Source: Candidatus Uhrbacteria bacterium (GTDB lineage: Bacteria; Patescibacteriota; Patescibacteriia; UBA9934; GWF2-40-263). From it: a stretch of 64,000 nucleotides of DNA. Under the pieces are notes generated by a model. It made no database searches. It was not told where the DNA came from and worked only from the letters and a program-made list of their open reading frames with translations. How positions within the stretch are numbered: position 1 is the first letter of the stretch; each line of letters begins with the position of its first letter. Positions 27,345-64,000 of this stretch are shown one piece after another. Location: NCBI GenBank assembly GCA_016844925.1, contig JAERTI010000035.1, positions 4,949 to 68,948 on the forward strand, in the 5' to 3' direction. Position numbers and translations under genes: made by a program.

Positions 27345-29477
27345 ATGCTCCGTCGACTCCATGCTACCATCTTTGCAGTGCTGTTCCTAGCGCTTTTTGT
27401 GGCCAACACCTTCCTCATTGGGAGCGTGTTTTTTGGTGGTGTTTTGCTCGCTTTGTACCTAGGAGCGTTTGGCTGGGAGCTTGGCGGCATCATCACAAAG
27501 AGCGAAAAGGCTGTTCTGCGGTGGTGGCTTGGAATCTGGGTGCTCTTGAGTATTCTCCTAACGGTTTTGACTGCCAGCTACTACCTTTGGGCGATTACCG
27601 CCACAATGGTGCATATTGTCATCCTGCTCACACCCCCTATTCTGCTCGTTGCCGCACGTAAAACAGCTCACCGATCGCTCTTTGCCCATGCTCACAATCT
27701 CTGGAAAGAAAAGCGTCACCGTGTTCCTAATACGGTCTGGATCGTGGCCGCGGGGTCACTCCTACTCCTGAGCCTCCTGTTCTCCGTCTTGGGCGCCCAC
27801 CCTGTCACAGATGCGGTCCGCTCCGTCTGGGAACGACTCCCTGAGAGTGTCTTCCTTCTCCTGTTGTTATCGACAGCACTCGTCTTCGCCTTGCTCTGGC
27901 GCGGACGAGAACGCGCACTCTCGCTCGTCTTGCTCTCAGTACTGCTGTTTGCTGCCATCAGCGTCGCGGCGATTGTCTTCCCGCTGGGTTTTGGATTCGA
28001 CTCGTTCATCCACAAAGCAACCGAGGCCCACTTGGCGGAGTTCGGTACCATCACCCCTAAGCCTTTCTACTACATTGGTCAGTACGCTCTGGTCCTGCTC
28101 GCCCATCACGGCTTTTTGATTCCCATCGATCTTGCCGATACATTTCTTGTCCCCGTCCTGACAGCCCTGCTACTCCCCATGGCTTGGTACTTTGCTGCGG
28201 CACACATCGTCCGCAAAAAGTCCGTCGCCATGCTCACGCTCTCAGGCATGTTCCTACTCCCGCTCTCAAGCTTTATCGTGACTACCCCTCAAGGCCTGGC
28301 AAACCTCTGGACGCTCCTGCTCATCCTCGCGTCGATTCCCTACCTGCTTGAACACGAGCACCCACGCCTGCGCGTGCTCGCCCTCGGCGCCATTGCCACG
28401 CTCTTGATCCACCCCATCGCCGGCATTCCAACCCTCCTCTATTTCATGTTCCTGGCGACAGATCCTTCGCGCACAAATCCCCGCACCCCCACAACCAATC
28501 GCATTGTCCGCATTCTGCTCATTAGCTTCGCTTCCATCGTGCTCCCACTGAGCTTTGCCGTGAACGCCTTCATCAGCGGACAGTCGCTCGGTATTGATCT
28601 GGCTGCCCTCAACCCCCTCACCTGGTTTTCTAACCTGAACCTGACCGTCTTTTTCGAGAGTCGATTCGATCCACTCCTAGACATCGTCTACCTCTACGGC
28701 CTCAACGCCATGCTCGTCCTTGTTATCTTGGCGACCTTTGCTTGGTTTGAGTACCGCAAAGAACTCTCACGACGCTTCCGCGCCATCCTCCTGATGGTCA
28801 TGGCACTTGCCATCAACTACTTCATCATGTCAGGTGCGCTCGAGTTCACCTTTCTCATCGATTACGAGCGCGCCAACTACGCAGCACGCCTTCTCCCTCT
28901 CATAGGGCTCTTCCTGACCCCATACGTCATCCTCGGCCTGGGTCACCTGTTCATGAACATCAAAACCCAACCCGTCATCCTCCGCGGCGGAGCACTCGTC
29001 CTCCTCGTCGCGATCGCCACATCCAGCGTCTACATGGCCTATCCCCGACGTGATGCCTATGAGACCAGTCGAGGATTTAACGTGAGCCAAGCAGACATCG
29101 ATGCCGTGCACCTCGTTGAGAGCCTCGCAGGTCCGCAGCCGTACCTCGCTCTGGCGAACCAGTCCGTGAGCGCGGCGGCGATTTCCGAGATTGGCTTCCA
29201 GTATTTCGAGGATCTCTTCTTCTACCCCATCCCTACCGGCGGCGCTCTCTACGAGGTCTTCCTACAAATGAACGAACAACCCTCTCGTGAAACCGCCAAG
29301 CAAGCCCTTAATCTCGTGCCACAGCACGGCGATGTAAACCGACTCTACTTCCTGGTCAACAACTACTGGTGGCAAGCCCCTCGCATCATCGAGACCGCGA
29401 AGACCACAGCCGACGACTGGCGCTCCGTGGGCGAAGAGGGGCAGGTGTACGTGTTTGAGTATCTATTCGACTATTAA
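27345..29477 (+). CDS. Large polytopic membrane protein (~710 aa), paralog of 56059-58125; possible GT-C/YfhO-like transferase
   Basis: It has more than 15 TM segments. Blocks shared with 56059-58125 include GFGFDSFIHKATEAHLAEFG vs GFGFDPFIHRAAETALVHNG, and YYIGQYALVLLAHHGFLIPID vs LYLGQYALIAGLNLLTGIPV. The C-terminal soluble domains also match (YWWQAPRIIETAK..VYVFEY vs DNWPEAGRIRAQ..VVIYEY). Confidence 0.55.
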   Translation: MLRRLHATIFAVLFLALFVANTFLIGSVFFGGVLLALYLGAFGWELGGIITKSEKAVLRWWLGIWVLLSILLTVLTASYYLWAITATMVHIVILLTPPILLVAARKTAHRSLFAHAHNLWKEKRHRVPNTVWIVAAGSLLLLSLLFSVLGAHPVTDAVRSVWERLPESVFLLLLLSTALVFALLWRGRERALSLVLLSVLLFAAISVAAIVFPLGFGFDSFIHKATEAHLAEFGTITPKPFYYIGQYALVLLAHHGFLIPIDLADTFLVPVLTALLLPMAWYFAAAHIVRKKSVAMLTLSGMFLLPLSSFIVTTPQGLANLWTLLLILASIPYLLEHEHPRLRVLALGAIATLLIHPIAGIPTLLYFMFLATDPSRTNPRTPTTNRIVRILLISFASIVLPLSFAVNAFISGQSLGIDLAALNPLTWFSNLNLTVFFESRFDPLLDIVYLYGLNAMLVLVILATFAWFEYRKELSRRFRAILLMVMALAINYFIMSGALEFTFLIDYERANYAARLLPLIGLFLTPYVILGLGHLFMNIKTQPVILRGGALVLLVAIATSSVYMAYPRRDAYETSRGFNVSQADIDAVHLVESLAGPQPYLALANQSVSAAAISEIGFQYFEDLFFYPIPTGGALYEVFLQMNEQPSRETAKQALNLVPQHGDVNRLYFLVNNYWWQAPRIIETAKTTADDWRSVGEEGQVYVFEYLFDY

Positions 29478-38102: not shown

Positions 38103-40220
38103 TTAGAGCCCCCAAGCGGCAGAGTTAATTCCACCTCGATCATTCTCATCATCTGAGAAAAATGTCCCGATAAGCTCTGAATAGCCGTTATACACACGAA
38201 TGTGTGGACCGCCGCCTGGACCTGCTGCAGTGATAATCGATGCCCCTGGCCACTCAGAGAGATTCCCTACAGAAAGCCGCACGCCTCCACGGAAGGTTGT
38301 GTCGTAGGCGAAAAAGGTCCCAAGCCAGCTCCCCTCCCCGTCAAAAATCTGCACCTGCGGGCCACCACCATTATCTGTACCCGTCACAATCTCATCATCT
38401 CCATCTCCATCTAAATCTCCCGATGCAACAAAGACTCCTTTGTCGTAGGTTTCGGCATAGGCCAAAAACTCGCTGTGGAACTCCCCATCGGCCTCATGGA
38501 CACGAATGATAGGCTCGTGCCCTTCTCCGAGTGTGGTGATGATTTCATTCAATCCGTCGCCATCGACATCCCCCATGGCAATGCGCACGCTGCGGGCGCC
38601 TGAAATATCGTCATAGGGTTCGATGGTGTCCCCCACTTGTTCTCCATCTTTATCAAAAATCTTCACACGCGCACCACCACCTTCATCAGTGCTTACGGCA
38701 ATCTCTTCAATGCCATCACCGTCAACGTCCCCAGTGGCGACAAACAATCCAGAATTCACAAAGGTGTTAAACGCGTAAAACTCACTCTCGACGTTCCCAT
38801 CGAGATCGAAGATGCGCACGTGCGGACCACCAGATCCTGGCACTACCACAATTTCCTCTACGCCATCGCCATCAACGTCCCCCATGGTTAATCGAACACC
38901 ACCCGTGAACGATTCATCATAGGCGTTAAAACTTGTCACAACCTCACTTCCAGAATTGGTAAACACTCGCACGGTTGGTGGCCCACCACTTTCTGGAGCT
39001 ACTGCAATACGGTAGCTTGACCCCACTTCACTGGCAGAGCAAACGCTGCAGCTACTCACCGCATCTGCCTCCTCATCTGCATAGGAAGAAGCGAGTGTGA
39101 GGGCCTTTGAAACATTCAGACGACCTGCTCCCATCTTTCCAGTTGCATCACCAGTTGCCGTCACCGGATCAACAGAGAGTCGCAGCGCGCTCTTAATGTC
39201 ACTTGGGTTTAACGACGAATACTTTGCCTTTAGAAGCGCTGCCGCTCCTGCGACCATCGGTGCGGCCATAGAGGTGCCAGACCATCCCTCTTGGTAGTAC
39301 CCCTCGGAAACTTCCTCCCAATCATCATCTTGATACACCGTACTTAAAATATCTTCTCCTGGTGCCGAAATGTCTGTACACCTAGCACCGTAGTTTGAAA
39401 AATCTGACTTCACATCATTTATGTCCGTAGAGGCCACACCCAGGATCCAATCCTCGTCTGCACGCTCACCATAGCAGGCTGGAAAGATGGGCTTATCGTC
39501 GATATCAATCCCTCCGTTATTCGCGTTCCCCACCGCAGCAACAACAACGACCCCTGCTTCAAAGGCGCGACGAAGTGCCTGGCGGAGAGCCTCGTCGTGA
39601 TCCCACCCTGTAAAACTCAGGTTGATTACGTCCGCTCCATTTTCCACCGCATAATCCACTCCTTGTGTCGCTAGATTTGAATCACCAACACCATTGTTAT
39701 CCAGAATCCTCACGGACATCAGTTCAATATCCCAGTTCACCCCAGCCATCCCCTCTTCATTGTCACCAACAGCACCGATGATGCCGGCAATAATGGTCCC
39801 ATGAGAAACCGCGTCAACATCAAAGCCCCCCTCAGTATCTGGAATGGGTGTGCCATCGTCTCCCACAAAATCATACCCGTTCACATCATCCACAAACCCA
39901 TTCCCGTCATTATCAACGCCATCGTCTGCCACCTCTGCGCTATTCACCCAAATATTCTCCTCAAGGTCTGGATGATCTAAATCAACGCCTGTATCAAGCA
40001 CAGCTACGACCACAGACCCATCCCCCGTCTCTTCATCCCAAGCATCTGGTGCCTGCATAGTCTCCAAGTACCACTGAAGATCATAATGTTCATCATCTGG
40101 TGTGAACGCATGAACGGGCAGGGCCAACAGAATAAGCAAACAAAAAATACCCCCCTGTTTGACTCGTTGGACAAATGTATTACATCGCGATGAATGTTCC
40201 ATAACGATCCTCTTGGTCAA
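38103..40220 (-). CDS. Secreted subtilisin-family (S8) peptidase with C-terminal FG-GAP/VCBS-like repeats
   Basis: The catalytic Asp (VAVLDTGVD), His (SHGTIIAGIIGA) and Ser (GTSMAAPMVAGAAALL) are present. About 7 C-terminal repeats follow (GGPxVRVF..DG.....F.AY...F.GGVR...GDVDGDGxEEI). Confidence 0.85.
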   Translation of the reverse strand: MTKRIVMEHSSRCNTFVQRVKQGGIFCLLILLALPVHAFTPDDEHYDLQWYLETMQAPDAWDEETGDGSVVVAVLDTGVDLDHPDLEENIWVNSAEVADDGVDNDGNGFVDDVNGYDFVGDDGTPIPDTEGGFDVDAVSHGTIIAGIIGAVGDNEEGMAGVNWDIELMSVRILDNNGVGDSNLATQGVDYAVENGADVINLSFTGWDHDEALRQALRRAFEAGVVVVAAVGNANNGGIDIDDKPIFPACYGERADEDWILGVASTDINDVKSDFSNYGARCTDISAPGEDILSTVYQDDDWEEVSEGYYQEGWSGTSMAAPMVAGAAALLKAKYSSLNPSDIKSALRLSVDPVTATGDATGKMGAGRLNVSKALTLASSYADEEADAVSSCSVCSASEVGSSYRIAVAPESGGPPTVRVFTNSGSEVVTSFNAYDESFTGGVRLTMGDVDGDGVEEIVVVPGSGGPHVRIFDLDGNVESEFYAFNTFVNSGLFVATGDVDGDGIEEIAVSTDEGGGARVKIFDKDGEQVGDTIEPYDDISGARSVRIAMGDVDGDGLNEIITTLGEGHEPIIRVHEADGEFHSEFLAYAETYDKGVFVASGDLDGDGDDEIVTGTDNGGGPQVQIFDGEGSWLGTFFAYDTTFRGGVRLSVGNLSEWPGASIITAAGPGGGPHIRVYNGYSELIGTFFSDDENDRGGINSAAWGL

Positions 40221-42240
40221 AGGTGAAAAAGCCTCCTATTAAATCGAATGACTGATCAAAAATACGAACATGGGGGCCACCAGAAGCGAGTGGAGATGTG
40301 TAGATCTCGCTAAGACCATTATTGTCGATATCCCCCACAGCTACGGAGACCCCCCCTGTAAATCGCGTGTGGTAAGCAAAAAATGACTGAGTCAGTGTAC
40401 CTAATTGATTATACACGGAAACCTTCGGACTGTGACCTGACCCTGAAGCGACCACGATCTCAGCCACCCCATCGCCATCAAGGTCCCCAACGGTAGTCGT
40501 TATCGCATCAACGTCACCATCAAACGCCACAAAAGAACGGACATAGGTTCCCGTTCCGTCAAAGATTCGAACAGCACCGTCGGAGCCGTACCGTTTTGTC
40601 ACAATGAGCTCATCCTCCGCATCGGCATCCAAATTACCCGCGCTTATTGCCAGGGGTGTTTCTGTACGACCGAGCGGAAAGAACGATCCTTTCAGGTGTC
40701 CTAGCTTATTAAAAATACGAACCTGCCCTGTGCTATTTTGATCTGCCGTCACGATAATCTCATCGATCCCATCAGCATTTATATCTCCAGTAGCAACATA
40801 GATACCCCCTCGCCCCCCTTCGTCAAAGGCAAAGAACTGATTTTCTGGACGACCATCAAGATCGAAAACGCGTACCTGCGGCCCACCTCCTGGCCCAGCC
40901 CCCGTGACAATCTCTAGTTCACCATCACCATCGACATCCCCTGTAGCCACACGCACACCACCAGTAAAGGCCTCGCTGTAGGCGTGAAAATCTCCCAGAA
41001 CGTTTCCGCGTCCATCATAGCGACGCACGAGCGGTACGGAGCCGTGACCCTGAGCGATCACAAAGCTCTCTGTTTCAATCACGGAACCAGATGAAACCGA
41101 CGTTGCCCCCGTCCCCTGAACCGTCACCTGCGCCACCTCAAGGGCCTTTGCCAAGTTCAAACGACCAGCACCTAAACGCGTACGCGCCTCAAGCGAACTC
41201 TCCCCCACGGGGTCAACCGAAAGCTTGAGCGCGTTTCGCACCTGGTCAGGTGTCATAGACGGATAGGTACTGCGAAGTCGTGCTGCTGCCGCAGCAACAA
41301 TCGGCGCAGCCAGCGAAGTCCCTTCCCACGGAGATGCATAGGCCGTACTAAGAAGCAGCTCACTCGCGTCATGAAAAACGGTGGCAAAAATATCAACACC
41401 AGGAGCAACGAGGTCCACACAGCGCGTGCCGAAGTTTGAAAAGCTTGCTTTGTTATCTGATCGATCACTGGCCGCAACACCAATCACCACATTGTGCCCG
41501 ATCTCCTGGTCATAACAAGCTGGATAGATGGGAGTGCTGTCGGTATCAACATTTCCGTTACCGACGGCCCCAACGATCACGACACCCTGCTCATAGGCCC
41601 ATACGAGGGTTTCCCTTAGACGCTCATCTGAAGTAGAAAACGTGATGCTCAGATTAATAATGTCTGCCCCGTTCTCAACGGCATAACGAACCGCGCGCCG
41701 AACATCGACGGTTGATCCAGCGCCATCACGATTCAACACACGCAGGGGCATAATTTTGGCCTCGGGCGCGATCCCCCTGATACCCAATCCATTATCTTGC
41801 TTAGCCGCGATGATGCCGGCAATCACGGTTCCGTGTGAGACCACAATATCCCTAAGGGGGGCCGTTGTGTCAGGTGAAGGGTCGGGATCGTTATCAACAA
41901 AGTCCCATCCCATGACGTCGTCCTCATAACCATTGGCGTCATTATCTACCTGATCTGCAACTGTCTCATCCACATTCACCCAGTACTGTCCTTCTAAATC
42001 TTCGTGATCCAAATCAAAACCCGCATCGAGCACGGCCACGATGGTCTCAGATCCTGAGCTCACGAACTCCGTCTCAGTGGCCGAGATTTGACTGAGATAC
42101 CAAAGCTCGTCAGCAAAACGATCTGTAGACTGTGCAACGGCCATCGTGCCATTAAAAATAAGCGAGACAATAACGAGACTCGCTATAAGGGCTTGTTTTT
42201 TTAATAACCGGACTTCCGGAAACAACGAAAAATGCCGCAT
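40180..42240 (-). CDS. Secreted subtilisin-family (S8) peptidase with FG-GAP/VCBS-like repeats, tandem paralog of 38103-40220
   Basis: The catalytic residues are Asp (VAVLDAGFD), His (SHGTVIAGIIAA) and Ser (GTSLAAPIVAAAAARL). The same C-terminal repeat family is present. The likely start is the ATG at 42240 (MRHFSLF, signal peptide). Confidence 0.85.
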   Translation of the reverse strand: MRHFSLFPEVRLLKKQALIASLVIVSLIFNGTMAVAQSTDRFADELWYLSQISATETEFVSSGSETIVAVLDAGFDLDHEDLEGQYWVNVDETVADQVDNDANGYEDDVMGWDFVDNDPDPSPDTTAPLRDIVVSHGTVIAGIIAAKQDNGLGIRGIAPEAKIMPLRVLNRDGAGSTVDVRRAVRYAVENGADIINLSITFSTSDERLRETLVWAYEQGVVIVGAVGNGNVDTDSTPIYPACYDQEIGHNVVIGVAASDRSDNKASFSNFGTRCVDLVAPGVDIFATVFHDASELLLSTAYASPWEGTSLAAPIVAAAAARLRSTYPSMTPDQVRNALKLSVDPVGESSLEARTRLGAGRLNLAKALEVAQVTVQGTGATSVSSGSVIETESFVIAQGHGSVPLVRRYDGRGNVLGDFHAYSEAFTGGVRVATGDVDGDGELEIVTGAGPGGGPQVRVFDLDGRPENQFFAFDEGGRGGIYVATGDINADGIDEIIVTADQNSTGQVRIFNKLGHLKGSFFPLGRTETPLAISAGNLDADAEDELIVTKRYGSDGAVRIFDGTGTYVRSFVAFDGDVDAITTTVGDLDGDGVAEIVVASGSGHSPKVSVYNQLGTLTQSFFAYHTRFTGGVSVAVGDIDNNGLSEIYTSPLASGGPHVRIFDQSFDLIGGFFTFDQEDRYGTFIAM

Positions 42241-42268
42241 ATACAGTAGCGGCATTGTATCGATCTTC

Positions 42269-43771
42269 TTAGAAATTGTCATCCAAAGTTGTCACAGCCT
42301 CGGCAGCAAGGTCTGGCACGTAATCTTCTGCTGATTCGATTGGCTCGCCAAAGGTGTAGTTTCCGTAGAATGCATCCGATATATCGTCGATCTGCTGATT
42401 CCAGTCATCGCCATAGAGCTCAGTAGCAATCTCTTCACTCGCGATTGAACGCAGCTCTCCCCCCTTGACCACAGCATACACCGTTGGCACAGAAAGGAAC
42501 TTCACCATACGCGTACCAGGATGATAGGTCACATTGGACCCAAGAGCGATATCAGAAAGAAAATCTGAGCTCACATCCACCACAGAATCGAAGTCATCAA
42601 ACCAGGTGAAAAATACTTTTTCGTTTGGAAACGCATGACGCTTACCGTCGGTAGCATAGTAGTAGACAGAACGGCATGGATCGTTGAGATCCGTTTCACC
42701 AAGACACACGGACTTGATAAGCGTCCCGGGCTCCGCCTCAACAGGCGTAAGCACTTCCTCTTCCTCAACCTCTTCTTCTGTTGCCTCTTCCTCAGTAATC
42801 TCTTCTTCCTCCTCAGCCTCTTCCTCGATCACCTCCTCCTCATAACGCACCATCACCGAGGCAATATCATCTTTTGTTCCAACGGCCCAGATGCCCCCAT
42901 CGGACACATACGCATTTCGGAATGTGTAATTTTCATCTGTGTAATCAGTAACCGTCCATGTAGCGCCACCGTCCTCAGATCTTATGAGAATCTTGTCTCC
43001 TACCACGACCAACTCATCCCCCGACCCACGAATATCATACAGATGTTGATTCGTTACTCCGCTCACAGAGACATCTGCCCACGACACACCAGCATCTGTC
43101 GTCTTTCTAAAAATGCCACTTCGTCCAACAACGTACCCCTCTGTCGCCGACGTAAACCACACGCCGTAGAGATCGTTACTCGCAACCATGCCGAGGTTTG
43201 TCCAATTTTGACCCCCATCAGTCGTAGACAACAACACTCCTTCTGTACCCACGATCCATGCCGTGCCATCACCTATATCCTGCACTCGATACAAAGCGCT
43301 GGTAACCGGCGAGGTGACACTCAACCAAAGTTTCGCGGCCGTTTGATACGCCATGATCCTTCCGCCGGACCCGACAAGATAGGCATAGTCGTCTGATGCA
43401 TCGAGGTCATAAAGATTTTCTGTCACACTAAGAGTGACATTTCCCCACGTTGCTCCACCATCATCGGACTGGCGCATCGTTGCCCCCTCACCTATCGCCC
43501 AAACCGTATCGCCAAACGCTCCCATATCCTGCCAGTAGGCGGTGGCGTTTTGATCAAAGACTTCCCAAGTTTCCCCGTCATCTTGCGATTGAATAATGTT
43601 TCCGCTATTTCCACCTGCAAAAACCGTGTCTCCGACCTGAACCATTCCCTGTAGGCCCTGGATGGTTCCATATTCTTTTTCTTCCCAAGACCCCTCAGCT
43701 AAAACAGGGCTCACCAGAACAGAAAAAATAAGCGCGCTAACAAAAGAGATGCGATGAAATTTCATATGCAC
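42269..43771 (-). CDS. Secreted BNR/Ycf48-like beta-propeller protein with acidic linker and C-terminal domain shared with the N-terminus of 43924-47622
   Basis: A signal peptide is present. DGGxTW-type Asp-box repeats recur (DDGETW, DDGGATW, DGGQNW, DAGVSW, DGGATW). An EE-rich linker follows. The C-terminal ~120 aa (SVYYYATDGKRHAFPNEKVFFTWFDDFDSVVDV...) aligns to TVYYYGSDGQRYSFPNEKTYFSWNADFDGVVEI... of the next gene. Confidence 0.65.
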   Translation of the reverse strand: MHMKFHRISFVSALIFSVLVSPVLAEGSWEEKEYGTIQGLQGMVQVGDTVFAGGNSGNIIQSQDDGETWEVFDQNATAYWQDMGAFGDTVWAIGEGATMRQSDDGGATWGNVTLSVTENLYDLDASDDYAYLVGSGGRIMAYQTAAKLWLSVTSPVTSALYRVQDIGDGTAWIVGTEGVLLSTTDGGQNWTNLGMVASNDLYGVWFTSATEGYVVGRSGIFRKTTDAGVSWADVSVSGVTNQHLYDIRGSGDELVVVGDKILIRSEDGGATWTVTDYTDENYTFRNAYVSDGGIWAVGTKDDIASVMVRYEEEVIEEEAEEEEEITEEEATEEEVEEEEVLTPVEAEPGTLIKSVCLGETDLNDPCRSVYYYATDGKRHAFPNEKVFFTWFDDFDSVVDVSSDFLSDIALGSNVTYHPGTRMVKFLSVPTVYAVVKGGELRSIASEEIATELYGDDWNQQIDDISDAFYGNYTFGEPIESAEDYVPDLAAEAVTTLDDNF

Positions 43772-55741: not shown

Positions 55742-55745
55742 ACAA

Positions 55746-55776
55746 ACACCCCGCCAACGCGGGGTGTTTTGTTTTT
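55746..55776. terminator. Bidirectional rho-independent terminator between convergent GT4 (+) and 55798-56055 (-)
   Basis: acaccccgc-caac-gcggggtgt plus ttttgttttt forms a 9-bp perfect stem. Confidence 0.7.
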
Positions 55777-55797: not shown

Positions 55798-56055
55798 CTA
55801 TCTTTTCTCGTCACGCTCGAAGATATTCTTAGGTTCGAAATACTCAAGCGTCCCACTCTTTTCCTTAAAATCGACTTTTGTATATCCAGGAGTTCCGTAA
55901 CCAGGCACCACACCGAACGAGGGTTTAAAAACAACTCCCGCAGCGTTTCCGGCAAGAATGTAAGCAAGCAAACCAGAAGCGGCCACGATACCTACAAACA
56001 ACATGATGTCGACAGCTGTTTCCGTTGAAACAGCTGTTTGAATTGAAGTCTTCAT
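55798..56055 (-). CDS. Small membrane-anchored protein, hypothetical
   Basis: It is an 85-aa protein with one TM (IMLFVGIVAASGLLAYILAG). A 3-nt gap separates it from the upstream gene stop. Confidence 0.4.
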   Translation of the reverse strand: MKTSIQTAVSTETAVDIMLFVGIVAASGLLAYILAGNAAGVVFKPSFGVVPGYGTPGYTKVDFKEKSGTLEYFEPKNIFERDEKR

Positions 56056-56058
56056 AAG

Positions 56059-58125
56059 CTATTGATATTCATAGATTACCACCCTGGTTCCTTGAACGCC
56101 ATAGGAAGCTTGCGCAAAACTTGCGGCCTGTGCACGTATCCTCCCCGCCTCTGGCCAATTATCATAGGTAAAGAAATACAACGTCTCAACCTGCGTTACG
56201 CGCAACACCTCGTCAACTAATTCTTGGTCTGGCCCGCTCGTCGACATATATTGAAACTGTTCATAGAGCCACCCTCCGGTGGGCAGTGGGTACCAGAGCA
56301 TTTCTCCCTGATCCCCTGATACCGTTCGCAAGAATCCAAATTCTTGAAGCGCTGCAGCACTCGTCATTTGATGTGCCAAAGCCACATAGGAGACATCCTC
56401 ACTCTTCCCCTCAATGAACCGCACTGCCTCCACGTCCACCTCACCTACACTTGCCCCCACACCAGTCGTTTTCTCATTTACCTGAGGATAGGACATGTAA
56501 AAGCTCATCGTAATTATCATCAACAAAGGGATAGCAAGATACTGTGCCCACCGAAGAGACAAGGTCTTGTTAAAGCGCTTTAACACAAGGACCAAAAACG
56601 CCAGTAGGAACACAAAGAAAAATAACTGCCTCAACCGAATGGCGTATTCAAGTTGTTCATACGCAATAACTCCGTCGAACCGAAAAAACTGCGCAAGGAG
56701 CAACATGGAACAACCAAGACCGACACCGACACACAGCAGCAATCGCTCTGACGCCTGCTTGACTCCCCCCTTATAAAACGAAAGGGTCAGCAAGACCACC
56801 ATGATCGGCATCCAACGAATCCATGCATACGCATACTCAAGCACCTGAGGTGCTGTGCCTCGTGTCTGAGCGTATGGATCACCAAACAGCTCCAAAAGCG
56901 TGACCCAGAATGACTGACCAAGAACAAGTTTCGTTCCACCTCCTAGTAGCCCATGCAGAAAAAACATGGAGGGTATCAGCAGAGTGACAACACTTACCGC
57001 CATGAATGTAGATACTAGAGATGAGTCTCGTCGCCCTTGCAGAAAAAACTTTGCTGTAAGTAGGGCCACGGCCGCAGCGCCACCAATGGGATGAAAAAGG
57101 AATGCTGTGAGAGAGAGAAGCCAAAGAAAGAGATTATGACTTTTTCCACCCCTCACACCAACTAACAATGTCACAACAATAAATAAAAGCGTCGAAACAT
57201 TAAACGGAACGGTAAAAATAAAGACACTAAATGGAATCCCCAGCAGGGCAAATAAGGCCAACACAGCTGAACGGTGGTTCAATGCGAATCCATGTCGCAA
57301 ACCAAGATACCCCACAGAAGGGATGGCGAACGTTGCCACAAAAGGAACAAACCATCGATCAATAAATAAAACAGGAATGCCCGTTAGCAAATTTAACCCA
57401 GCGATAAGAGCATACTGCCCTAGGTACAAAATTTGTCGTGGCTCAATGAATCCATTGTGAACCAGGGCTGTTTCAGCTGCACGATGGATAAAGGGGTCAA
57501 AGCCAAATCCGAACCCATAGACGATGGCAGCTACAGAAAACGATACGCCGAAAAATGCAAAAACACTCAACCAAGACCAGAAGGAAGACTCCTTTAATAC
57601 AAACCAAAGGCTCACCAAACCCGCCAATCCGTAAACAGCAAAAAATGACGCTGGTAGCATCTGCCAAGGGCTCGACAATGCCTCAAAGGTCTGAGCATGT
57701 CGTAGCGTCGTAAACATCCATGTAAAACAAAACGTTAGGAACGCTATAGACGCGTAGCTCGTCGGCAGTACCACTGAGACTCTGGAAAACGACCATTGAA
57801 ATTGCTTTCTCTCTCCATGCAACTCTATCGCCAGCACTAGCAACAATACTGGCAGCAAACTTGTCCACTGTGTCAAAAAATAAAACCGTGCGAGTAGCAC
57901 CCATGAGATGATGAGGGCGCTACTAACCCCAAACACACCGTAAAGCCATCTAAACGGACGATCCTTCTGAAACCAAAAGCCCACTTCCCAGCCCACAAGT
58001 GAGATCCATCCTAAAAACATCAATGGTCTTATGGATCCAGTAGGATCAAGGAAACTAAAAACAACAAACAACGCTGTTAGCAATAAAACAAGAGCCGTCC
58101 TATTCCCCCTTCGCAACATCTCCAT
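56059..58125 (-). CDS. Large polytopic membrane protein (~688 aa), paralog of 27345-29477 in inverted orientation
   Basis: See the shared blocks listed for 27345-29477. Confidence 0.55.
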   Translation of the reverse strand: MEMLRRGNRTALVLLLTALFVVFSFLDPTGSIRPLMFLGWISLVGWEVGFWFQKDRPFRWLYGVFGVSSALIISWVLLARFYFLTQWTSLLPVLLLVLAIELHGERKQFQWSFSRVSVVLPTSYASIAFLTFCFTWMFTTLRHAQTFEALSSPWQMLPASFFAVYGLAGLVSLWFVLKESSFWSWLSVFAFFGVSFSVAAIVYGFGFGFDPFIHRAAETALVHNGFIEPRQILYLGQYALIAGLNLLTGIPVLFIDRWFVPFVATFAIPSVGYLGLRHGFALNHRSAVLALFALLGIPFSVFIFTVPFNVSTLLFIVVTLLVGVRGGKSHNLFLWLLSLTAFLFHPIGGAAAVALLTAKFFLQGRRDSSLVSTFMAVSVVTLLIPSMFFLHGLLGGGTKLVLGQSFWVTLLELFGDPYAQTRGTAPQVLEYAYAWIRWMPIMVVLLTLSFYKGGVKQASERLLLCVGVGLGCSMLLLAQFFRFDGVIAYEQLEYAIRLRQLFFFVFLLAFLVLVLKRFNKTLSLRWAQYLAIPLLMIITMSFYMSYPQVNEKTTGVGASVGEVDVEAVRFIEGKSEDVSYVALAHQMTSAAALQEFGFLRTVSGDQGEMLWYPLPTGGWLYEQFQYMSTSGPDQELVDEVLRVTQVETLYFFTYDNWPEAGRIRAQAASFAQASYGVQGTRVVIYEYQ

Positions 58126-59038
58126 AGCTCACCCACTGCTCAACAACCTCTTTGACATCCTTTGCACGAACTTGTTTTTTCTTATGAGCTGACACCATGG
58201 CGCAAGTCTCATCAAGTAAATCAATCGCGCTATCTGGCAACTTCCTCTCTTTAAGATGCTTCTTTGAAAGACTTACCATGGACTTCAACGCCTCCTCTTT
58301 AACAGTGACACCATGAAATGATTCATACACCGACTTAAGTCTATGCAAGATGTCCATCGTCTCAGCCTTATCCGCTTCAGATATCACAACTGGCTGTAAT
58401 CTGCGACTAAAGGCAGCATCTTGATGAAGAACGTGTGTGAAATCGTCGTACGTTGTAGCACCTATGACTTGAATGTGACCACGAGCAAGTGTTGGCTTTA
58501 ATACGTCAGCAATATTCAATGACCCTTGTGCAGCCCCGATTTGAGACACCAAATGAATCTCATCAATAAATAAGATGATGTGATCTTTTTGGTCCATCAG
58601 CTCCTTAATCATCCGCTTCAGCCGTTGCTCCAACTCCCCACGAAACTTCGTCTCTGCCACCAAAGCATTTACGTCCAAAGACAAAATCTCTTTCTCTTGC
58701 AACATGTCTGGCACAGAACCATCAACAATCTTCTGCGCAAGGCCTTCAACGATAGCCGTCTTCCCTACCCCCGATTCTCCAATCAAGAGCGGATTGTTTT
58801 TCGTACGTCTCAACAAGATATGCATCATGCGCTCGAGTTCCTCTGCTCTCCCCACAAGAGGATCTAGCTCATTTTGCCGTGCTAATTCGGTTAAATTTAT
58901 TGTCACTTCATCGAGGTGCCCTGTATAGAGACCTCGTTTTGAGCGCTGATACCTTCTGGCAATCAGTAAGTAACTTAAGAGTGCAATGATACCTATCAGG
59001 TACATCACAAGCGGATCCGAAGTAATCGTTGAAAACAT
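58100..59038 (-). CDS. Membrane-anchored AAA+ ATPase consisting only of a ClpA/ClpB-type D1 module
   Basis: An N-terminal TM (LVMYLIGIIALLSYLLIA) replaces the Clp N-domain. ELDPLVGRAEELERMMHILLRRTKNNPLLIGESGVGKTAIVEGLAQKIV is the Clp D1 Walker A region. ILFIDEIH is the Walker B region. A sensor/arginine region GATTYDDF..RRLQPV follows. No middle domain or D2 is present. Confidence 0.7.
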   Translation of the reverse strand: MFSTITSDPLVMYLIGIIALLSYLLIARRYQRSKRGLYTGHLDEVTINLTELARQNELDPLVGRAEELERMMHILLRRTKNNPLLIGESGVGKTAIVEGLAQKIVDGSVPDMLQEKEILSLDVNALVAETKFRGELEQRLKRMIKELMDQKDHIILFIDEIHLVSQIGAAQGSLNIADVLKPTLARGHIQVIGATTYDDFTHVLHQDAAFSRRLQPVVISEADKAETMDILHRLKSVYESFHGVTVKEEALKSMVSLSKKHLKERKLPDSAIDLLDETCAMVSAHKKKQVRAKDVKEVVEQWVSYGDVAKGE

Positions 59039-59054
59039 AGGATTACGTTTCTAG

Positions 59055-60257
59055 CTACGTAAGATTTGAATAAAGAGCCATGATTTGTTGAATATGTCGC
59101 TCGTAGGGGTAAGTATCCTCAATGCGTTTCCGTGCCTGTTCTCCGAACTTTCTTGCTTCACCATGGAAGACACGCAAAATAGACTCCACCCAGCCATCGA
59201 GATTAACCGGGTCCACCAAAAAACCTGTCTGACGATCTTGCACAATTTCTCCAACTCCACCCACATCCGATGCTATGACCGGCTTGCCGTAGCTCATCGC
59301 CTCAAGAGCAGCCAGGGGGAAGTTCTCGTGAACGCGTGACGGGAGCAGTACAGCAACCGCTCCTCGATACAATTCTTCTAATTCTTTCCCGGACTTAAAT
59401 CCTAAAAATTCAATATTCGCATGCCCATGGGCCAACTTGTGTAACCAGGCACTTTGCGGGCCGCGGCCAACGATCTTAAACGGAATATCCTCTAACAGCT
59501 TTGCGGCACGGATAATCGTCTCCACTCCCTTCTCTTCGCTGAGCCTGCCAACAAAAAGCACATATCCATCATGGTCATAGCGCGGCTCAATATGTCGCAC
59601 ATTCATTCCATAAGGAATGACTTCAATCTTTTGCTCTGGGAACCCCCCTATGACCAGCTGACGCTTCATGTAGCGCGACGGGCAAATAAACACGTCGACC
59701 GACTTTTTATAAAGTCCGAGAAGTTTGTGTAACTTAAACGCTGCGGTCTGCACCGTACTGGCAAGCCGAGAATCTTTGTGAAACTTGGTGACACACGCTT
59801 TTACCACTCCCACGTTCCGATAATCTTCACCGCAGCCGGTTGCCCAAATATTGTACTGCGGTGAAATAAGGTGATGGTCATGAACGGTCATCACAATGGG
59901 TACCCCCTGCGACTTCAAGACAGGTAAAAAAGAAGGTGAAAGCTGTGTGTAAATATTGTGCAGATGACAGAGGTCCGGTTTCCTCTGACGGATCAATTGC
60001 TTCATCTTTCTTCTTGATTCAAACGAGTACATCATTCGCCCTACGGTTCGAACCCCCTGCCAACCCATGTGTGCTTCACCGGTATGAACTTGTGAAGGAA
60101 AAAATCTGCGATCGGGAGTTTCAAGATTATCTGGATGGTCCATGGCAAAGGGAATGACCTCATGACCCCGTTCTTTCAATCGAGCAGAAAGGTCGAGCAT
60201 GTAACGCTCTGCTCCACCCTTGAGATAAAAATATTTGTTTGCCTGAATCACCTTCAT
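59055..60257 (-). CDS. Glycosyltransferase family 4 (GT4)
   Basis: The start is MKVIQANKYFYLKGGAERY. The C-terminal block is LPSRVHENFPLAALEAMSYGKPVIASDVGGVGEIV. Confidence 0.8.
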   Translation of the reverse strand: MKVIQANKYFYLKGGAERYMLDLSARLKERGHEVIPFAMDHPDNLETPDRRFFPSQVHTGEAHMGWQGVRTVGRMMYSFESRRKMKQLIRQRKPDLCHLHNIYTQLSPSFLPVLKSQGVPIVMTVHDHHLISPQYNIWATGCGEDYRNVGVVKACVTKFHKDSRLASTVQTAAFKLHKLLGLYKKSVDVFICPSRYMKRQLVIGGFPEQKIEVIPYGMNVRHIEPRYDHDGYVLFVGRLSEEKGVETIIRAAKLLEDIPFKIVGRGPQSAWLHKLAHGHANIEFLGFKSGKELEELYRGAVAVLLPSRVHENFPLAALEAMSYGKPVIASDVGGVGEIVQDRQTGFLVDPVNLDGWVESILRVFHGEARKFGEQARKRIEDTYPYERHIQQIMALYSNLT

Positions 60258-61786
60258 ACAATGGCTCTTTTCCCTCTACTTGCAAGAACGTAAAGCAACC
60301 CCGCATAGAGCCAGAGATAGTAGGCCGAGGTTCGAATCTCAAAAACGGTCGAAGTAAATGCGTTAAATGCCACGCCGAGCATCATGGCGCAAACACCAAG
60401 AGCAAAGGCCTGAGTCATTGGATCTTTATGCTCTCTCGCCACGCGTAGTGCGTACAAAAATATCCCTCCATAGAGCCAGATAAACAATCCAAGGCCTAAC
60501 GTGCCAGCCTCCCCCCAAAGAGAAAACCAATTGTTATCAATAAACCCTTCTGTTCCAAACACACCGTACGGCAACCCAAGATCCTCGTAGACACTTGTGT
60601 TGTGCAAGGCCGCAACAGCCCCTCCGCCAAACTGACCTGGACCAAACCCCAAAATCGGCGAAGCTGTGACAACATCTTTAGGGGTGTGGACATACCAAAA
60701 AACACGCCCTAAACCGTAATACTCCCCTCTCCATCGAGCATAGCTAAAACTTTCGTAGAAACGTTCAGAGAGCGACTGACCAGGCGCCTCGGTGATGAGC
60801 GAAACATTAAGCCCGCTCGCCCCAAGCGCCACAACAAGAAAGACGACGAACGCGGAAATACCTGCCAGGACACGTCGATCTTTCTTTACATACAATCCAA
60901 TGAACAAAAAACCAATAAGGAATGCAAACCATGATGAGCGTGAAAACGTCAAAACAAGCGTTGGAAGAGCTGCAACAAACACAAAAATAAGCCACGAGTA
61001 CTTCTTTTGAACACGTTTTGTAAAGAGCATGCCTGCTGTCAGGAGAAGGAACAAATAAAGGAAGTTCCCAAGGCGATCATAGCGCCCAAGGGTGGAAAAT
61101 ACGCGTGATCCTGGGTCCCAAAACTGCTCTACACCGCCAGTGAGTGTTATCGCTCCTAATGTTTTTGATTCAGATGGCAAGAGAAGGTTATCTAGCGGCT
61201 CACCGATAATAGACTGAGCAATTCCCAGCGTGGCCTGAAAAACAACAACGGCCAGCATGATCCAAGTAAGTTGCAAGATGAACTTCTTTGACGGCGCTAG
61301 CTGTACAACGAGAAAGAAGACGAGAACAAAACGAAGGATCTGACGTAGTCCAAGTATGGCCACCGTAGGCTCAACTAAATTCACGAGTGCACTAGCGAGC
61401 AGCGAAAGAACAAACAATGCTGCGGGAAGATCAAAACGCGTTGATCGCCACGGACGCTTACCCGAGAGCACCCCCCAGAGAACAACAGCAGCCACAAGGT
61501 AAATCAATGTCTCAGGAAAATAGCGCGCAAAAACGTAGACTTCATCTGGGGTGAATTTTAAAATGATTGATTCAAATGGTAGATAGACTGCCAAAACCCC
61601 AAGGGTCCACTCTGGATGCACAATCGTTAGAGCAAGAATCACTAACACAATGACTCCAGCAATCACAAGAGCTGGAGAAAAAATCGACTGCAAAACAATT
61701 AATAACGTCAGCAATCCAAAAAGCGCCACCGCCACGGCTGCCGTGTGCTCCTCAGCGCGCCTATACACCCTCCGTAAGTTGATCAT
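60254..61786 (-). CDS. Wzy_C-domain protein (O-antigen ligase / O-oligosaccharyltransferase family)
   Basis: It has 10-12 TM segments. The large loop carries the conserved arginine context (FSRSSWFAFLIGFLF). The periplasmic-loop architecture is typical of WaaL/PglL. Confidence 0.6.
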   Translation of the reverse strand: MINLRRVYRRAEEHTAAVAVALFGLLTLLIVLQSIFSPALVIAGVIVLVILALTIVHPEWTLGVLAVYLPFESIILKFTPDEVYVFARYFPETLIYLVAAVVLWGVLSGKRPWRSTRFDLPAALFVLSLLASALVNLVEPTVAILGLRQILRFVLVFFLVVQLAPSKKFILQLTWIMLAVVVFQATLGIAQSIIGEPLDNLLLPSESKTLGAITLTGGVEQFWDPGSRVFSTLGRYDRLGNFLYLFLLLTAGMLFTKRVQKKYSWLIFVFVAALPTLVLTFSRSSWFAFLIGFLFIGLYVKKDRRVLAGISAFVVFLVVALGASGLNVSLITEAPGQSLSERFYESFSYARWRGEYYGLGRVFWYVHTPKDVVTASPILGFGPGQFGGGAVAALHNTSVYEDLGLPYGVFGTEGFIDNNWFSLWGEAGTLGLGLFIWLYGGIFLYALRVAREHKDPMTQAFALGVCAMMLGVAFNAFTSTVFEIRTSAYYLWLYAGLLYVLASRGKRAIV

Positions 61787-61831: not shown

Positions 61832-61860
61832 GGGCAAAATAAAAAGCGACTACCACAGGG
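61832..61860 (-). terminator. Rho-independent terminator downstream of the MopE-type repeat gene
   Basis: On the minus strand, gcgactacc-ccctgt-ggtagtcgc plus tttttatttt is found. Confidence 0.6.
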
Positions 61861-61896
61861 GGTAGTCGCATCCAGCGTCATGCTGGATCGTTGCCG

Positions 61897-64000
61897 CTAG
61901 GGGCAGTCGACGATGTCGTCGTTGTCGACGTCACCGTCGCAGTCGTTGTCGATGCCGTCGCTGCAGGCGAGGGACTCGTCACCGGCCGGGCTGGCCAGGG
62001 ACTCGTCGTCGTCGCAGTCGCCATCAAGCGGCGTGTAGGTGTCGCCGTCGTCGTCCGCGACGCAGTCGCTGTCGCCCGCGTCGACATCGTCGATGTCGTT
62101 GTCGCAGTCGTTGTCGATCCCGTCGGTGCAGAGCTCGTAGGAGATCTCGTACATCTCGGGGTTGACGTACTCGTCGGAGTCGTCGCAGTCCCCGCCCGAG
62201 GCCGAGTAGCCCGTGGGCTCCTCGCACTGGATCAGGGTCGCGGCGCTGTCGTCGCCGTAGCCGTCGCCGTCCACGTCGTCGTACCACTCGGTGGCCGTCG
62301 AGGTGTCCAGGTCGCCGTCGTCGTCGTCGATCAGACCGTCGCAGTCGTTGTCGACGCTGTCGCACTCCTCGGTGGCCGAGGTGTTGATGGCGCTGTCGCC
62401 GTCATCGCAGTCGTCGCTGTTGCTGGCGTAGCCGCTGGGCACGCTGCAGTCTTCGGTGCTGGAGGCGGGGTCGCCCTCGCCGTCACCGTCGACGTCCTCG
62501 TAGAAGGTCGTGGTGACCCCCTCGTCGGTGCTGCCGTCGCAGTCGTTGTCGACGCTGTCGCACACCTCGGTGGCCGAGGTGTTGATCGTGCTGTCGGAGT
62601 CGTCGCAGTCCAGGAAGTTGACCACGTAGCCGCTGGGCTGGCTGCACTCGTCGGTGGAGTTCGAGCTGTCGCCCTCGCCGTCACCGTCGGTGTCCGCGTA
62701 GTAGGTGGTCTCGACCCCCTCGTCCACGGTGCCGTCGCAGTCGTTGTCCTGCGTGTCGCAGTACTCGGTGGCGCCCGGGTAGGTGCCGGCGTCGTTGTCG
62801 TCGCAGTCGGTGCTGTCGCTGACGTACCCGCTGGGGGCGCTGCAGGCGTCGTCCGTGCTGCTGGCGTCGCCGTAGCTGTCGCCGTCACCGTCGGCGTAGA
62901 AGGTCGTCTCGACCCCCTCGTCCACGGTGCCGTCGCAGTCGTTGTCGATCTCGTCGCAGGTCTCCGTGGCGCTGGTGTTCACGGCGCTGTCGCCGTCGTC
63001 GCAGTCGCTGGAGTCCGAGACGTAGCCGCTGGGCTGGCTGCAGGACATGGTCGAACTCGAGCTGTCGCCCTCGCCGTCGCCGTCCTGGTCGATGTAGAAC
63101 GTCGAACCCGTGGAGGTGTCCACGGAGGTGTCGTCGTCGTCGATGTCGCCATCGCAGTCGTTGTCGACGCTGTCGCACACCTCGGTGGCCGAGGTGTTGA
63201 TGGCGCTGTCGCCATCGTCGCAGTCGTCGGCGTTGCTGACGTAGCCGCTGGGCTGGCTGCAGGCGTCGTCGGTGGAGCTGCTGTCGCCCTCGCCGTCGCC
63301 GTCGGTGTCCGCGTAGTAGGTGATCTCGACCCCCTCGTCCACGGTGCCGTCGCAGTTGTTGTCGATCAGGTCGCACACCTCGGTCTCACCGGGGTTGGCG
63401 GCCGCCTCGGCGTCGTCGCAGTCGCTGGAGTTCGCCACGTACCCGCTGGGGGCGCTGCAGGCGTCGTCCGTGTTGCTCAGGTCGCCGTAGCCGTCGCCGT
63501 CGCCGTCCGCGTAGTAGGTGGTCTCGACCCCCTCGTCCACGGTGCCGTCGCAGTTGTCGTCGGTCTCGTTGCAGACCTCCGCGGCGCTCGGGTTGACCGA
63601 GGAGTCGGTGTCGTCGCAGTCACCGTCGATGGCCACGTACCCGCTGGGGGCGCTGCAGCTCACGTAGGTGTCCGAGGTCTCACCGTAGCTGTCGCCGTCG
63701 GTGTCGCCGTACCAGGTGGACGCGTCCGAGGACGTGTCCGGGTCGACGGTGCCGTCGCAGTCGTTGTCCGCGCCGTCGCAGACCTCCGTACCACCGGGGT
63801 AGCTGGAGGCGTCCGCGTCGTCGCAGTCGCTGTTGTCGTCCACGTAGCCGCTGGGGGCGTCGCAGGCGGGCACGGCCGTGCCGGAGCTGTCGCCGAAGGT
63901 GTCGCCGTCGCTGTCGACGTACCAGTCGGTGGCGTCCGCGGAGGTCGACGGATCGATGTTGCCATCGCAGTCGTTGTCCACGTCGTCACAGACCTCGGAG
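61897..64000 (-). CDS. Cys/Asp-rich tandem-repeat protein with MopE-type putative metal/calcium-binding motif repeats, high-GC foreign-type; the 5' end probably runs off the window
   Basis: About 12 repeats of ~60-70 aa have the pattern YxDxDGDGxGD....C..PSGYV....DCDDxDxxxNxxATExCDxxDNDCDGxxDEGV. GC3 is saturated. The alternative-frame ORFs 62024-63376 are shadows. The reading frame continues upstream of the M at 63981 to the window end. Confidence 0.7.
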   Translation of the reverse strand, partial: SEVCDDVDNDCDGNIDPSTSADATDWYVDSDGDTFGDSSGTAVPACDAPSGYVDDNSDCDDADASSYPGGTEVCDGADNDCDGTVDPDTSSDASTWYGDTDGDSYGETSDTYVSCSAPSGYVAIDGDCDDTDSSVNPSAAEVCNETDDNCDGTVDEGVETTYYADGDGDGYGDLSNTDDACSAPSGYVANSSDCDDAEAAANPGETEVCDLIDNNCDGTVDEGVEITYYADTDGDGEGDSSSTDDACSQPSGYVSNADDCDDGDSAINTSATEVCDSVDNDCDGDIDDDDTSVDTSTGSTFYIDQDGDGEGDSSSSTMSCSQPSGYVSDSSDCDDGDSAVNTSATETCDEIDNDCDGTVDEGVETTFYADGDGDSYGDASSTDDACSAPSGYVSDSTDCDDNDAGTYPGATEYCDTQDNDCDGTVDEGVETTYYADTDGDGEGDSSNSTDECSQPSGYVVNFLDCDDSDSTINTSATEVCDSVDNDCDGSTDEGVTTTFYEDVDGDGEGDPASSTEDCSVPSGYASNSDDCDDGDSAINTSATEECDSVDNDCDGLIDDDDGDLDTSTATEWYDDVDGDGYGDDSAATLIQCEEPTGYSASGGDCDDSDEYVNPEMYEISYELCTDGIDNDCDNDIDDVDAGDSDCVADDDGDTYTPLDGDCDDDESLASPAGDESLACSDGIDNDCDGDVDNDDIVDCP

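Follow-up and report, generated by a model that had tools for sequence, protein, structure and literature searches.

All of the well-studied Clp/Hsp100 machines are, to our knowledge, soluble, and they possess either two rings or a single ring of the D2 type. Membrane-anchored motors with a single AAA ring have been described elsewhere, namely Msp1/ATAD1, a eukaryotic extractase of the outer mitochondrial and peroxisomal membranes (PMC7018516, PMC9273213), and FtsH (PMC7949044). Here, we describe a gene, TM-D1, at positions 58100-59038 on the minus strand of a 64,000-nucleotide stretch of the Candidatus Uhrbacteria contig JAERTI010000035.1 (the window), whose 312-residue product consists of an N-terminal transmembrane (TM) helix followed by a single complete Clp/Hsp100-type D1 AAA+ module. 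TM-D1 retains its ATPase and pore-loop residues and encodes what is, as judged by sequence, a functional member of a protein family restricted to the candidate phyla radiation (CPR, or Patescibacteria). We propose that this protein is a tethered hexameric threading motor that would engage the Lys/Thr-rich (KT) tails of proteins encoded by neighbouring genes and would act, together with a membrane protein resembling GT-C-fold glycosyltransferases, in the biogenesis, remodelling or removal of glycosylated surface proteins, a reading to which we assign a probability of roughly 45%.

The class I Clp/Hsp100 proteins (ClpA, ClpB/Hsp104, ClpC and ClpE) are homologous to TM-D1 in their D1 module, with which it has in common the Walker A and B motifs, the K-Y/F-R-G loop, the sensor Thr, a double arginine finger, the LPDxAIDLxDE motif and the final D1 helix. 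TM-D1 differs from them in having no N-domain, middle domain (M-domain), D2 or ClpP loop, in carrying a TM anchor instead, and in scoring below every equivalog cut-off. In architecture it is like Msp1/ATAD1, in which a single N-terminal TM helix and a short linker tether one AAA ring that has aromatic pore loops but no protease (PMC7018516, PMC9273213), and this design predicts the same action for TM-D1, the pulling of membrane proteins by a short exposed segment. The likeness is one of architecture and predicted function only: Msp1/ATAD1 belongs to the meiotic/classic AAA clade, whereas the best sequence and structure matches of TM-D1 are all Clp D1 domains, and Msp1 acts on tail-anchored proteins with a C-terminal TM helix, whereas the candidate clients of TM-D1 are anchored at their N-termini. 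FtsH likewise holds a single AAA ring under the membrane by an N-terminal anchor and acts on membrane proteins via their cytoplasmic tails (PMC7949044), but in FtsH there are two TM helices, with a periplasmic domain, and the ring is fused to an M41 metalloprotease, features that are missing from TM-D1, whose ATPase is of the Clp D1 type. TM-D1 is no closer kin to Msp1 or FtsH than to any AAA protein. One-ring derivatives of a two-ring Clp/Hsp100 ancestor that have likewise gained new N-terminal targeting or anchoring elements are mitochondrial CLPB/Skd3 (PMC9934407) and the Torsins (PMC5425593). These keep the D2-type (HCLR clade) module, whereas the TM-D1 family keeps D1, and the Torsins, unlike TM-D1, have no pore-loop aromatics and reside in the lumen of the endoplasmic reticulum. 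The coupling of a Clp/Hsp100 motor to a membrane component for exported and surface proteins is exemplified by HSP101 of PTEX, a Plasmodium ClpB-like unfoldase seated on the EXP2 pore (PMC6550532), which is a full two-ring protein that pushes its substrate out through the pore from its D2 end. The searchable literature, whose partial coverage makes this no proof of novelty, yielded no account of Clp proteins that pair a TM helix with D1 alone, nor of a bacterial analogue of Msp1, and databases name TM-D1 proteins 'AAA family ATPase' or, wrongly, 'ClpC'.

The original prediction, made from the letters of the window, had described a 312-residue open reading frame (ORF) with an N-terminal TM helix and a complete Clp D1 module, and had suggested a survey of the phylogenetic distribution of this architecture. 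Both the ORF and its domain composition were borne out by Pfam, PDB matches and structure prediction, and among the 120 best matches in a search of 5.8 billion proteins the architecture recurs in 86 (at least 86 clusters), all of them 303-391 residues long, with Walker A at about residue 80-90 behind a TM helix at the N-terminus. Named matches belong to Candidatus Uhrbacteria, Kerfeldbacteria, Parcubacteria or 'Patescibacteria group', so that every member with a named source is from the CPR, and several of the genes lie on contigs of 200-976 kb. The Walker, sensor and arginine-finger motifs that had been quoted are all present in the sequence. Walker A is GESGVGKT (residues 87-94, positions 58757-58780 on the minus strand, as are the motifs that follow), with G90, G92 and K93 found in 86/86 family members; Walker B is ILFIDEIH (residues 155-162, 58553-58576), with D159 and E160 equally invariant. 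Pore loop 1, TKFRG (residues 130-134, 58637-58651), has T130, R133 and G134 in all 86, its position 132 being Tyr in 67, Phe in 18 and Leu in one. The arginine fingers R212 and R213 (58400-58405) occur in every family member and in 24/24 canonical Clp D1 domains; sensor-1 reads ATT (residues 194-196), the sensor Thr being invariant or nearly so in the family, and LPDSAIDLLDE occupies residues 267-277.

The lack of an N-domain, M-domain, D2 and ClpP-docking loop, also claimed originally, agrees with the domain boundaries drawn by the hidden Markov models of Pfam and NCBIfam. Pfam detects AAA at residues 84-197 and AAA_lid_9 at residues 224-299 (PF17871, E 6.6e-24; 58142-58369, minus strand) and no other Clp domain. 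Neither AAA_2 (PF07724) nor ClpB_D2-small (PF10431) was found by Pfam, nor was Clp_N (PF02861), residues 1-40 being the TM helix and a basic linker. The ClpP-docking loop of the IGF/IGL type, which is sited in D2, is absent along with D2 itself in both Pfam and NCBIfam. No insertion of a coiled-coil M-domain, as in ClpB and ClpC, was found in the alignment or in the AlphaFold2 model, where the lid continues into the last D1 helix (residues 269-311). This helix, marked in the family by V290 (85/86), W302 (82/86) and the likewise conserved D294, corresponds to the one that ends the small subdomain of D1, with no M-domain inserted. The NCBIfam models of ClpA, ClpB and ClpV match TM-D1 locally, in their D1 part only (positions 166-431 of 734 for ClpA), with scores below the equivalog cut-offs (321 against 993 bits for ClpA, 312 against 1232 for ClpB and 296 against 885 for ClpV), and the only PDB sequence matches are the D1 domains of Hsp104, ClpE, ClpB, ClpC and ClpA (E about 1e-75). 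The AlphaFold2 model, a monomer built with 58 homologues, has a predicted local distance difference test score (pLDDT) of 90.8; in it, residues 9-34 are helical and a short linker leads on to a complete D1 fold, which superposes on the D1 domains of ClpB, ClpC1 and ClpA with TM-scores of 0.77-0.81 and root-mean-square deviations of 1.5-2.3 Å.

The D1 module of TM-D1 is 44-54% identical to canonical Clp D1 domains over about 250 residues. When D1 cores were placed in a neighbour-joining tree, the 24 canonical long Clp sequences grouped together in a single clade, into which no TM-anchored protein fell. At sites that are invariant in two-ring Clps the family has a signature of its own, with Q166 for Gly, D178 for Asn, K205/P206 for Glu-Lys and K260/K261 for Arg-Tyr, together with W197. 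A sister genome (L096-L098, where L numbers denote surveyed loci) carries a matching operon, and its ATPase is 96.8% identical to that of the window, with 46 synonymous and 13 non-synonymous differences and a ratio of non-synonymous to synonymous substitution rates (dN/dS) of 0.07. A profile search of 1.84 billion representatives at 50% identity retrieved about 12 proteins resembling TM-D1 among its top 150, the others being ordinary Clp proteins. Since the D1 domains of canonical Clps reach equally high scores, this search gives no tally of the family, which is real though of modest size. The top three representatives of that search (P0151, P0152 and P0153) scored 550-587 bits over two matched stretches, above any single-D1 score, which suggests, from the match pattern, proteins with two tandem D1-like modules. 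In Uhrbacteria UBA10169, a TM-D1 gene beside GT-C is split (L012:1745-2630, plus strand): tblastn segments cover query residues 17-143 and 177-306, and the ORF has only 190 residues, for which a pseudogene, a deletion and a faulty assembly are all possible explanations.

The TM helix of TM-D1 occupies residues 9-27 (58958-59014, minus strand; Kyte-Doolittle hydropathy 2.37 over 19 residues) and is directly followed by RRYQRSKRG; hydropathy, charge bias and the modelled helix predict an N-out/C-in orientation. Across the 86 family members the mean net charge is -0.63 before the helix and +3.05 in the 12 residues after it, and the side following the helix is the more positive in 99% of them. By the positive-inside rule, this bias places the N-terminus outside and the ATPase in the cytoplasm, where an AAA+ ATPase must be to use ATP. 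The sequence of the helix and of the linker (median 20 residues) is not conserved across the family, which fits a simple tether. In Clp/Hsp100 rings the N-domain linker of ClpA and ClpB joins D1 on the substrate-entry face; the tether of TM-D1 attaches at the corresponding point, and this N-terminal face of D1 most likely lies against the membrane. Judging from established Clp structures, an anchor at the entry face means that threading would pull a polypeptide from the membrane into the cytoplasm. The role in export that had been considered originally is thus not favoured, and export by the route of HSP101 is unlikely, since TM-D1 is anchored at the opposite face.

The stop codon of TM-D1 overlaps by 26 nucleotides the start of a gene for a 688-residue polytopic membrane protein (56059-58125, minus strand); the overlap had been noticed in the original prediction and is real. 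No Pfam or NCBIfam model matches the 688-residue protein. A word-seeded search returned 19 database relatives, of which the named ones are all from the CPR (Uhrbacteria, Parcubacteria and 'Patescibacteria group'), and the motif GFGFDPFIH, which includes D210 and H214, is invariant in their alignment. Its AlphaFold2 model (pLDDT 85, predicted TM-score 0.89) finds its best Foldseek matches in the PDB among glycosyltransferases of the GT-C fold that use lipid-linked sugars (STT3, PglB, AftA, ALG12, AftD, ALG9 and EmbC). These scores are marginal (E about 1e-3, TM-score 0.35-0.46), and we therefore call the protein GT-C-fold-like (GT-C below) rather than a member of a named family. The earlier description of this protein as a paralog is justified by a second copy in the window at 27345-29477 (plus strand; 710 residues, about 16 TM-like segments), which is 34-36% identical to it in two segments and has no adjoining TM-D1 gene; several other genomes also have two GT-C copies. 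When the GT-C alignment was scanned over one genome per GTDB species, 157 loci with relatives were obtained, of which 80 were kept. Most are labelled as Patescibacteria lineages and many others bear the title of an 'uncultured Gammaproteobacteria' metagenome-assembled genome, which we take to be a mislabel; nearly all meaningfully labelled loci of the 157 are Patescibacteria. TM-D1 adjoins GT-C in 16/80 loci, mostly among the 27 closest relatives, and there usually lies directly upstream of it, with stop/start overlaps of 4-136 nucleotides; such overlaps occur in the window, L003, L007, L093 and about ten further genomes. Independent look-ups that started from TM-D1 homologues showed TM-D1 and GT-C arranged in this way in L003/4/5, L007 and L093 and divergently in L092.

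The gene that follows GT-C in the window (55798-56055, minus strand) encodes a single-pass protein of 85 residues whose N-terminal tail is rich in Thr and whose TM helix is rich in Ala/Gly; it also has two Pro-Gly-Tyr (PGY) repeats, is 91.7% identical in the sister genome (dN/dS 0.04) and aligns with small proteins encoded after GT-C elsewhere. In relatives, these small single-pass proteins begin with a tail such as MIKTKTRSKTKTAITVAVVAGGLLAAAAVAG and carry PGY repeats on the outside, up to 12 xGY units, with 40-66% of their residues being Pro, Gly or Tyr, and the trio of ATPase, GT-C and small protein recurs in many distant CPR genomes. The N-terminal part constitutes what we call the KT-tail module, or KT-box, 10-20 residues rich in Lys/Arg and Thr followed by an Ala/Gly-rich TM helix. 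The same module also heads larger proteins of 200-760 residues that adjoin TM-D1 upstream, downstream, divergently or convergently (L001, L003, L006, L008, L015/16, L017, L019, L025, L092 and L095), including four loci where GT-C is absent (L001, L006, L008 and L095). The N-termini of KT-tail proteins align across loci, and many of the larger ones have homologous outside domains, almost none with a Pfam match; no Pfam or NCBIfam model matches the KT-tail N-terminus, the PGY proteins or most KT-tail proteins. A simple motif scan located 23 KT-tail genes within 3.5 kb of TM-D1 (1.75 per 10 kb) and none farther out in 155 kb of TM-D1 loci, whereas the rate in 658 kb of loci without TM-D1 was 0.24 per 10 kb, mostly doubtful hits. 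A KT-tail neighbour is present in at least 22 of 26 non-redundant TM-D1 loci, the exceptions being L038, where the contig is truncated, and the distant members L010 and L094; these counts are not phylogenetically independent, yet the ATPases are only 42-53% identical and the arrangements differ. The connection of TM-D1 to surface-protein and glycan genes, which the neighbourhood had suggested at the outset, is supported by this survey. As to the PGY-repeat proteins themselves (window 55798-56055, minus strand; L007:8536-8886; L017:5461-5862; L016:6674-6994; L093:9145-9411), they are reminiscent of elastomeric or low-complexity repeats.

AAA+ pore loops grip their substrate with a two-residue period, and ClpB is reported to prefer basic and aromatic peptides. 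In the mechanism that we propose, a hexameric TM-D1 ring would sit on the cytoplasmic face of the membrane with its substrate-entry face to the bilayer, and would, at the expense of ATP, draw polypeptide chains through its T-K-Y/F-R-G pore loops. Its clients would most likely be the adjoining N-in single-pass proteins with a Lys/Thr-rich cytoplasmic tail and an Ala-rich TM helix, comprising the small PGY-repeat proteins and the larger surface proteins of 200-760 residues. Being short, unstructured and basic, and positioned at the expected entry face of the ring, the KT tails are the most plausible handles, and their alternating K/T pattern would suit a two-residue grip. The geometry would be like that of Msp1/ATAD1 or of an FtsH AAA ring without its protease, gripping a short cytoplasmic tail at the membrane and pulling. 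With one anchor, one ring and no protease, as in Msp1/ATAD1 and the AAA tier of FtsH, pulling or extraction is likelier than pushing out. Translational coupling of TM-D1 to GT-C in the window and in many relatives indicates that the motor probably works with the GT-C enzyme, and the outcome may be removal, recycling, quality control during glycosylation, or another.

Several points weigh against this proposal. Hexamer formation by a D1-only protein is assumed by analogy, and the oligomerisation of ClpB and Hsp104 depends heavily on D2. A linker of 20 residues does not strictly fix the orientation of the ring. We infer the clients from gene neighbourhood alone, and the KT tails could instead be positive-inside signal anchors of co-regulated surface proteins. 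Drawing a type II protein back across the membrane would be physically problematic where its outside domain is folded, so that the action may be limited to unassembled or small clients, or there may be no extraction at all. In the window, the tail of the 85-residue protein, MKTSIQTAVSTETAV, is homologous but degenerate, being Thr-rich and not basic, and in the distant loci L010 and L094 the only neighbours of this kind are tiny K/T-tailed TM proteins of 50-54 residues. Finally, the window ATPase is itself divergent within the family, from which it departs at several near-invariant positions, among them S270 (58229-58231; Lys in 81/86 members and in 24/24 canonical Clps), A222 (usually Pro, 83/86) and Y197 (usually Trp, 67/86). 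These states recur in the sister genome, and this, together with the dN/dS of 0.07, marks the lineage as divergent but constrained.

The motor residues and the membrane tether fit equally well a general quality-control dislocase for many misassembled membrane proteins, similar to Msp1 or to FtsH without its protease, for which the neighbours would be co-located genes rather than specific clients. The unconserved sequence of the anchor and linker suggests just such a generic tether, and several TM-D1 members have no GT-C neighbour, but the association with KT-tail neighbours is very consistent across distant genomes and gene orientations and the overlapping stop and start of TM-D1 and GT-C point to a dedicated partnership, and we regard a general dislocase as unlikely. 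That overlap, found in the window and at least ten other genomes, would be accounted for by an assembly or regulatory chaperone devoted to GT-C, whose ring would engage the enzyme's cytoplasmic loops and assist its folding, its activation or its coupling to the acceptor, with no threading of KT tails. Such a role would also suit the concentration of the association in one GT-C subclade (the 16/80 loci, mostly among the 27 closest relatives); it is quite unlikely, for GT-C is missing within 6-10 kb of TM-D1 in L001, L006, L008, L010, L094 and L095, and 64/80 GT-C loci have no TM-D1 nearby.

It is improbable that TM-D1 is an anchor or adaptor subunit that brings another Clp/Hsp100 protein to the membrane and has no motor activity by itself. 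Identity to the D1 of canonical Clp proteins amounts to 52-54%, and L008 has a second atypical membrane-anchored Clp 3 kb away; however, the family substitutions (Q166, D178, K205 and K260/K261) point to long independent evolution without D2, no Clp partner is encoded nearby in the window or in most loci, and a two-tier ring would have a gap wherever a D1-only subunit was built in. The L008 protein (L008:2720-5347, plus strand; 875 residues) carries two predicted TM helices at its N-terminus and a region resembling Clp_N; its D1 is degenerate (Walker A GDPGTGKD, Walker B ILVFENIE), its D2 is intact, and it is only 30% identical to the TM-D1 of the same genome. Anchored and degenerate in this way, it was rejected as a canonical full-length Clp beside TM-D1, and may represent a second membrane-anchored Clp-like family in the CPR. 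There is, lastly, hardly any likelihood that TM-D1 is what a frameshift or truncation has left of a full-length clpB, clpC or clpA, as the terms 'fragment' and 'degenerate Clp remnant' in the original prediction had allowed. Such an origin is recommended by a superficial resemblance only, the high similarity to the D1 of full-length Clp proteins. The downstream frames encode the GT-C protein, a tblastn search of the whole 64 kb with a D2-bearing Clp protein matched only the D1 ORF and found no D2, the architecture recurs in at least 86 clusters with invariant motor residues and, for the window and its sister, a dN/dS of 0.07, and the N-terminal TM helix is a feature gained rather than lost. 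The tethered motor engaging KT tails is our preferred reading.

The genes around TM-D1 in the window form a putative unit. TM-D1 lies on the minus strand, so that the 688-residue GT-C protein is encoded downstream of it and the sugar-related genes upstream, the reverse of the order originally given; the order of transcription is Wzy_C, GT4, TM-D1, the 688-residue protein and the 85-residue protein. The first gene (60254-61786, minus strand) encodes a polytopic Wzy_C-like protein, resembling O-antigen ligases and polymerases, with about 10 TM-like segments and a Pfam Wzy_C score of 29.7 bits, slightly under the cut-off of 31.7. It is followed by a GT4-family glycosyltransferase gene (59055-60257, minus strand; Pfam Glycos_transf_1 and Glyco_transf_4), which ends 16 nucleotides upstream of TM-D1 and precedes it in the sister genome as well. 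The five genes are bracketed by terminator-like hairpins, one at 61846-61869 (minus strand) between the unit and a MopE-repeat gene, and one at 55744-55769 with an 11-bp stem, bidirectional and assigned to neither strand, which closes the unit. The MopE-repeat gene (61897-63981, minus strand), which precedes the operon in the sister genome too, encodes a Cys/Asp-rich protein of 694 residues with at least nine putative metal-binding repeats of the MopE type; its repeat region has 68% G+C compared with about 50% elsewhere, and contains many spurious overlapping ORFs. Membership of a defence system was rejected, PADLOC returning only weak generic P-loop matches. Two further large ORFs (38103-42282, minus strand) were considered as GT-C paralogs and rejected: they are tandem secreted paralogs of 705 and 700 residues, 40% identical, each with a subtilase domain and FG-GAP repeats. 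After this pair comes a BNR/Ycf48-like protein of 500 residues whose C-terminus resembles that of a KT-tail protein of L001 (L001_594; 55% over 152 residues). In other genomes, ribosomal L21/L27 genes and MraY, FtsW, MurG or DivIC genes lie within a few kb of TM-D1 (L003:13297-17584; L008:5375-7286; L010:5531-9875). A link of TM-D1 to a division and cell-wall cluster is possible; alternatively, this may just reflect compact CPR genomes.

Attachment to host cells is the way of life of CPR bacteria, most of whose surface proteins lack annotation. TM-D1, GT-C and the KT-box proteins might together constitute a CPR-specific system for the sorting or turnover of surface proteins, in which the tail would be a recognition handle threaded by a bacterial counterpart of Msp1, controlling which glycosylated proteins, of the PGY-repeat or the large adhesin-like kind, stay on the surface of the episymbiont; this extension of the proposal is tentative, and rather doubtful as a whole. 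A widespread, membrane-anchored D1-only ring maintained by selection would show that the D1 half of a Clp/Hsp100 protein is able to work as a stand-alone motor, and would mean that bacteria have, in this membrane AAA+ machine without a protease, an analogue of eukaryotic Msp1/ATAD1. The KT-box is a simple sequence handle for finding candidate clients, and the combination of a motor, a glycosyltransferase and tail-tagged proteins represents a testable entry into how the CPR cell surface is built and renewed.

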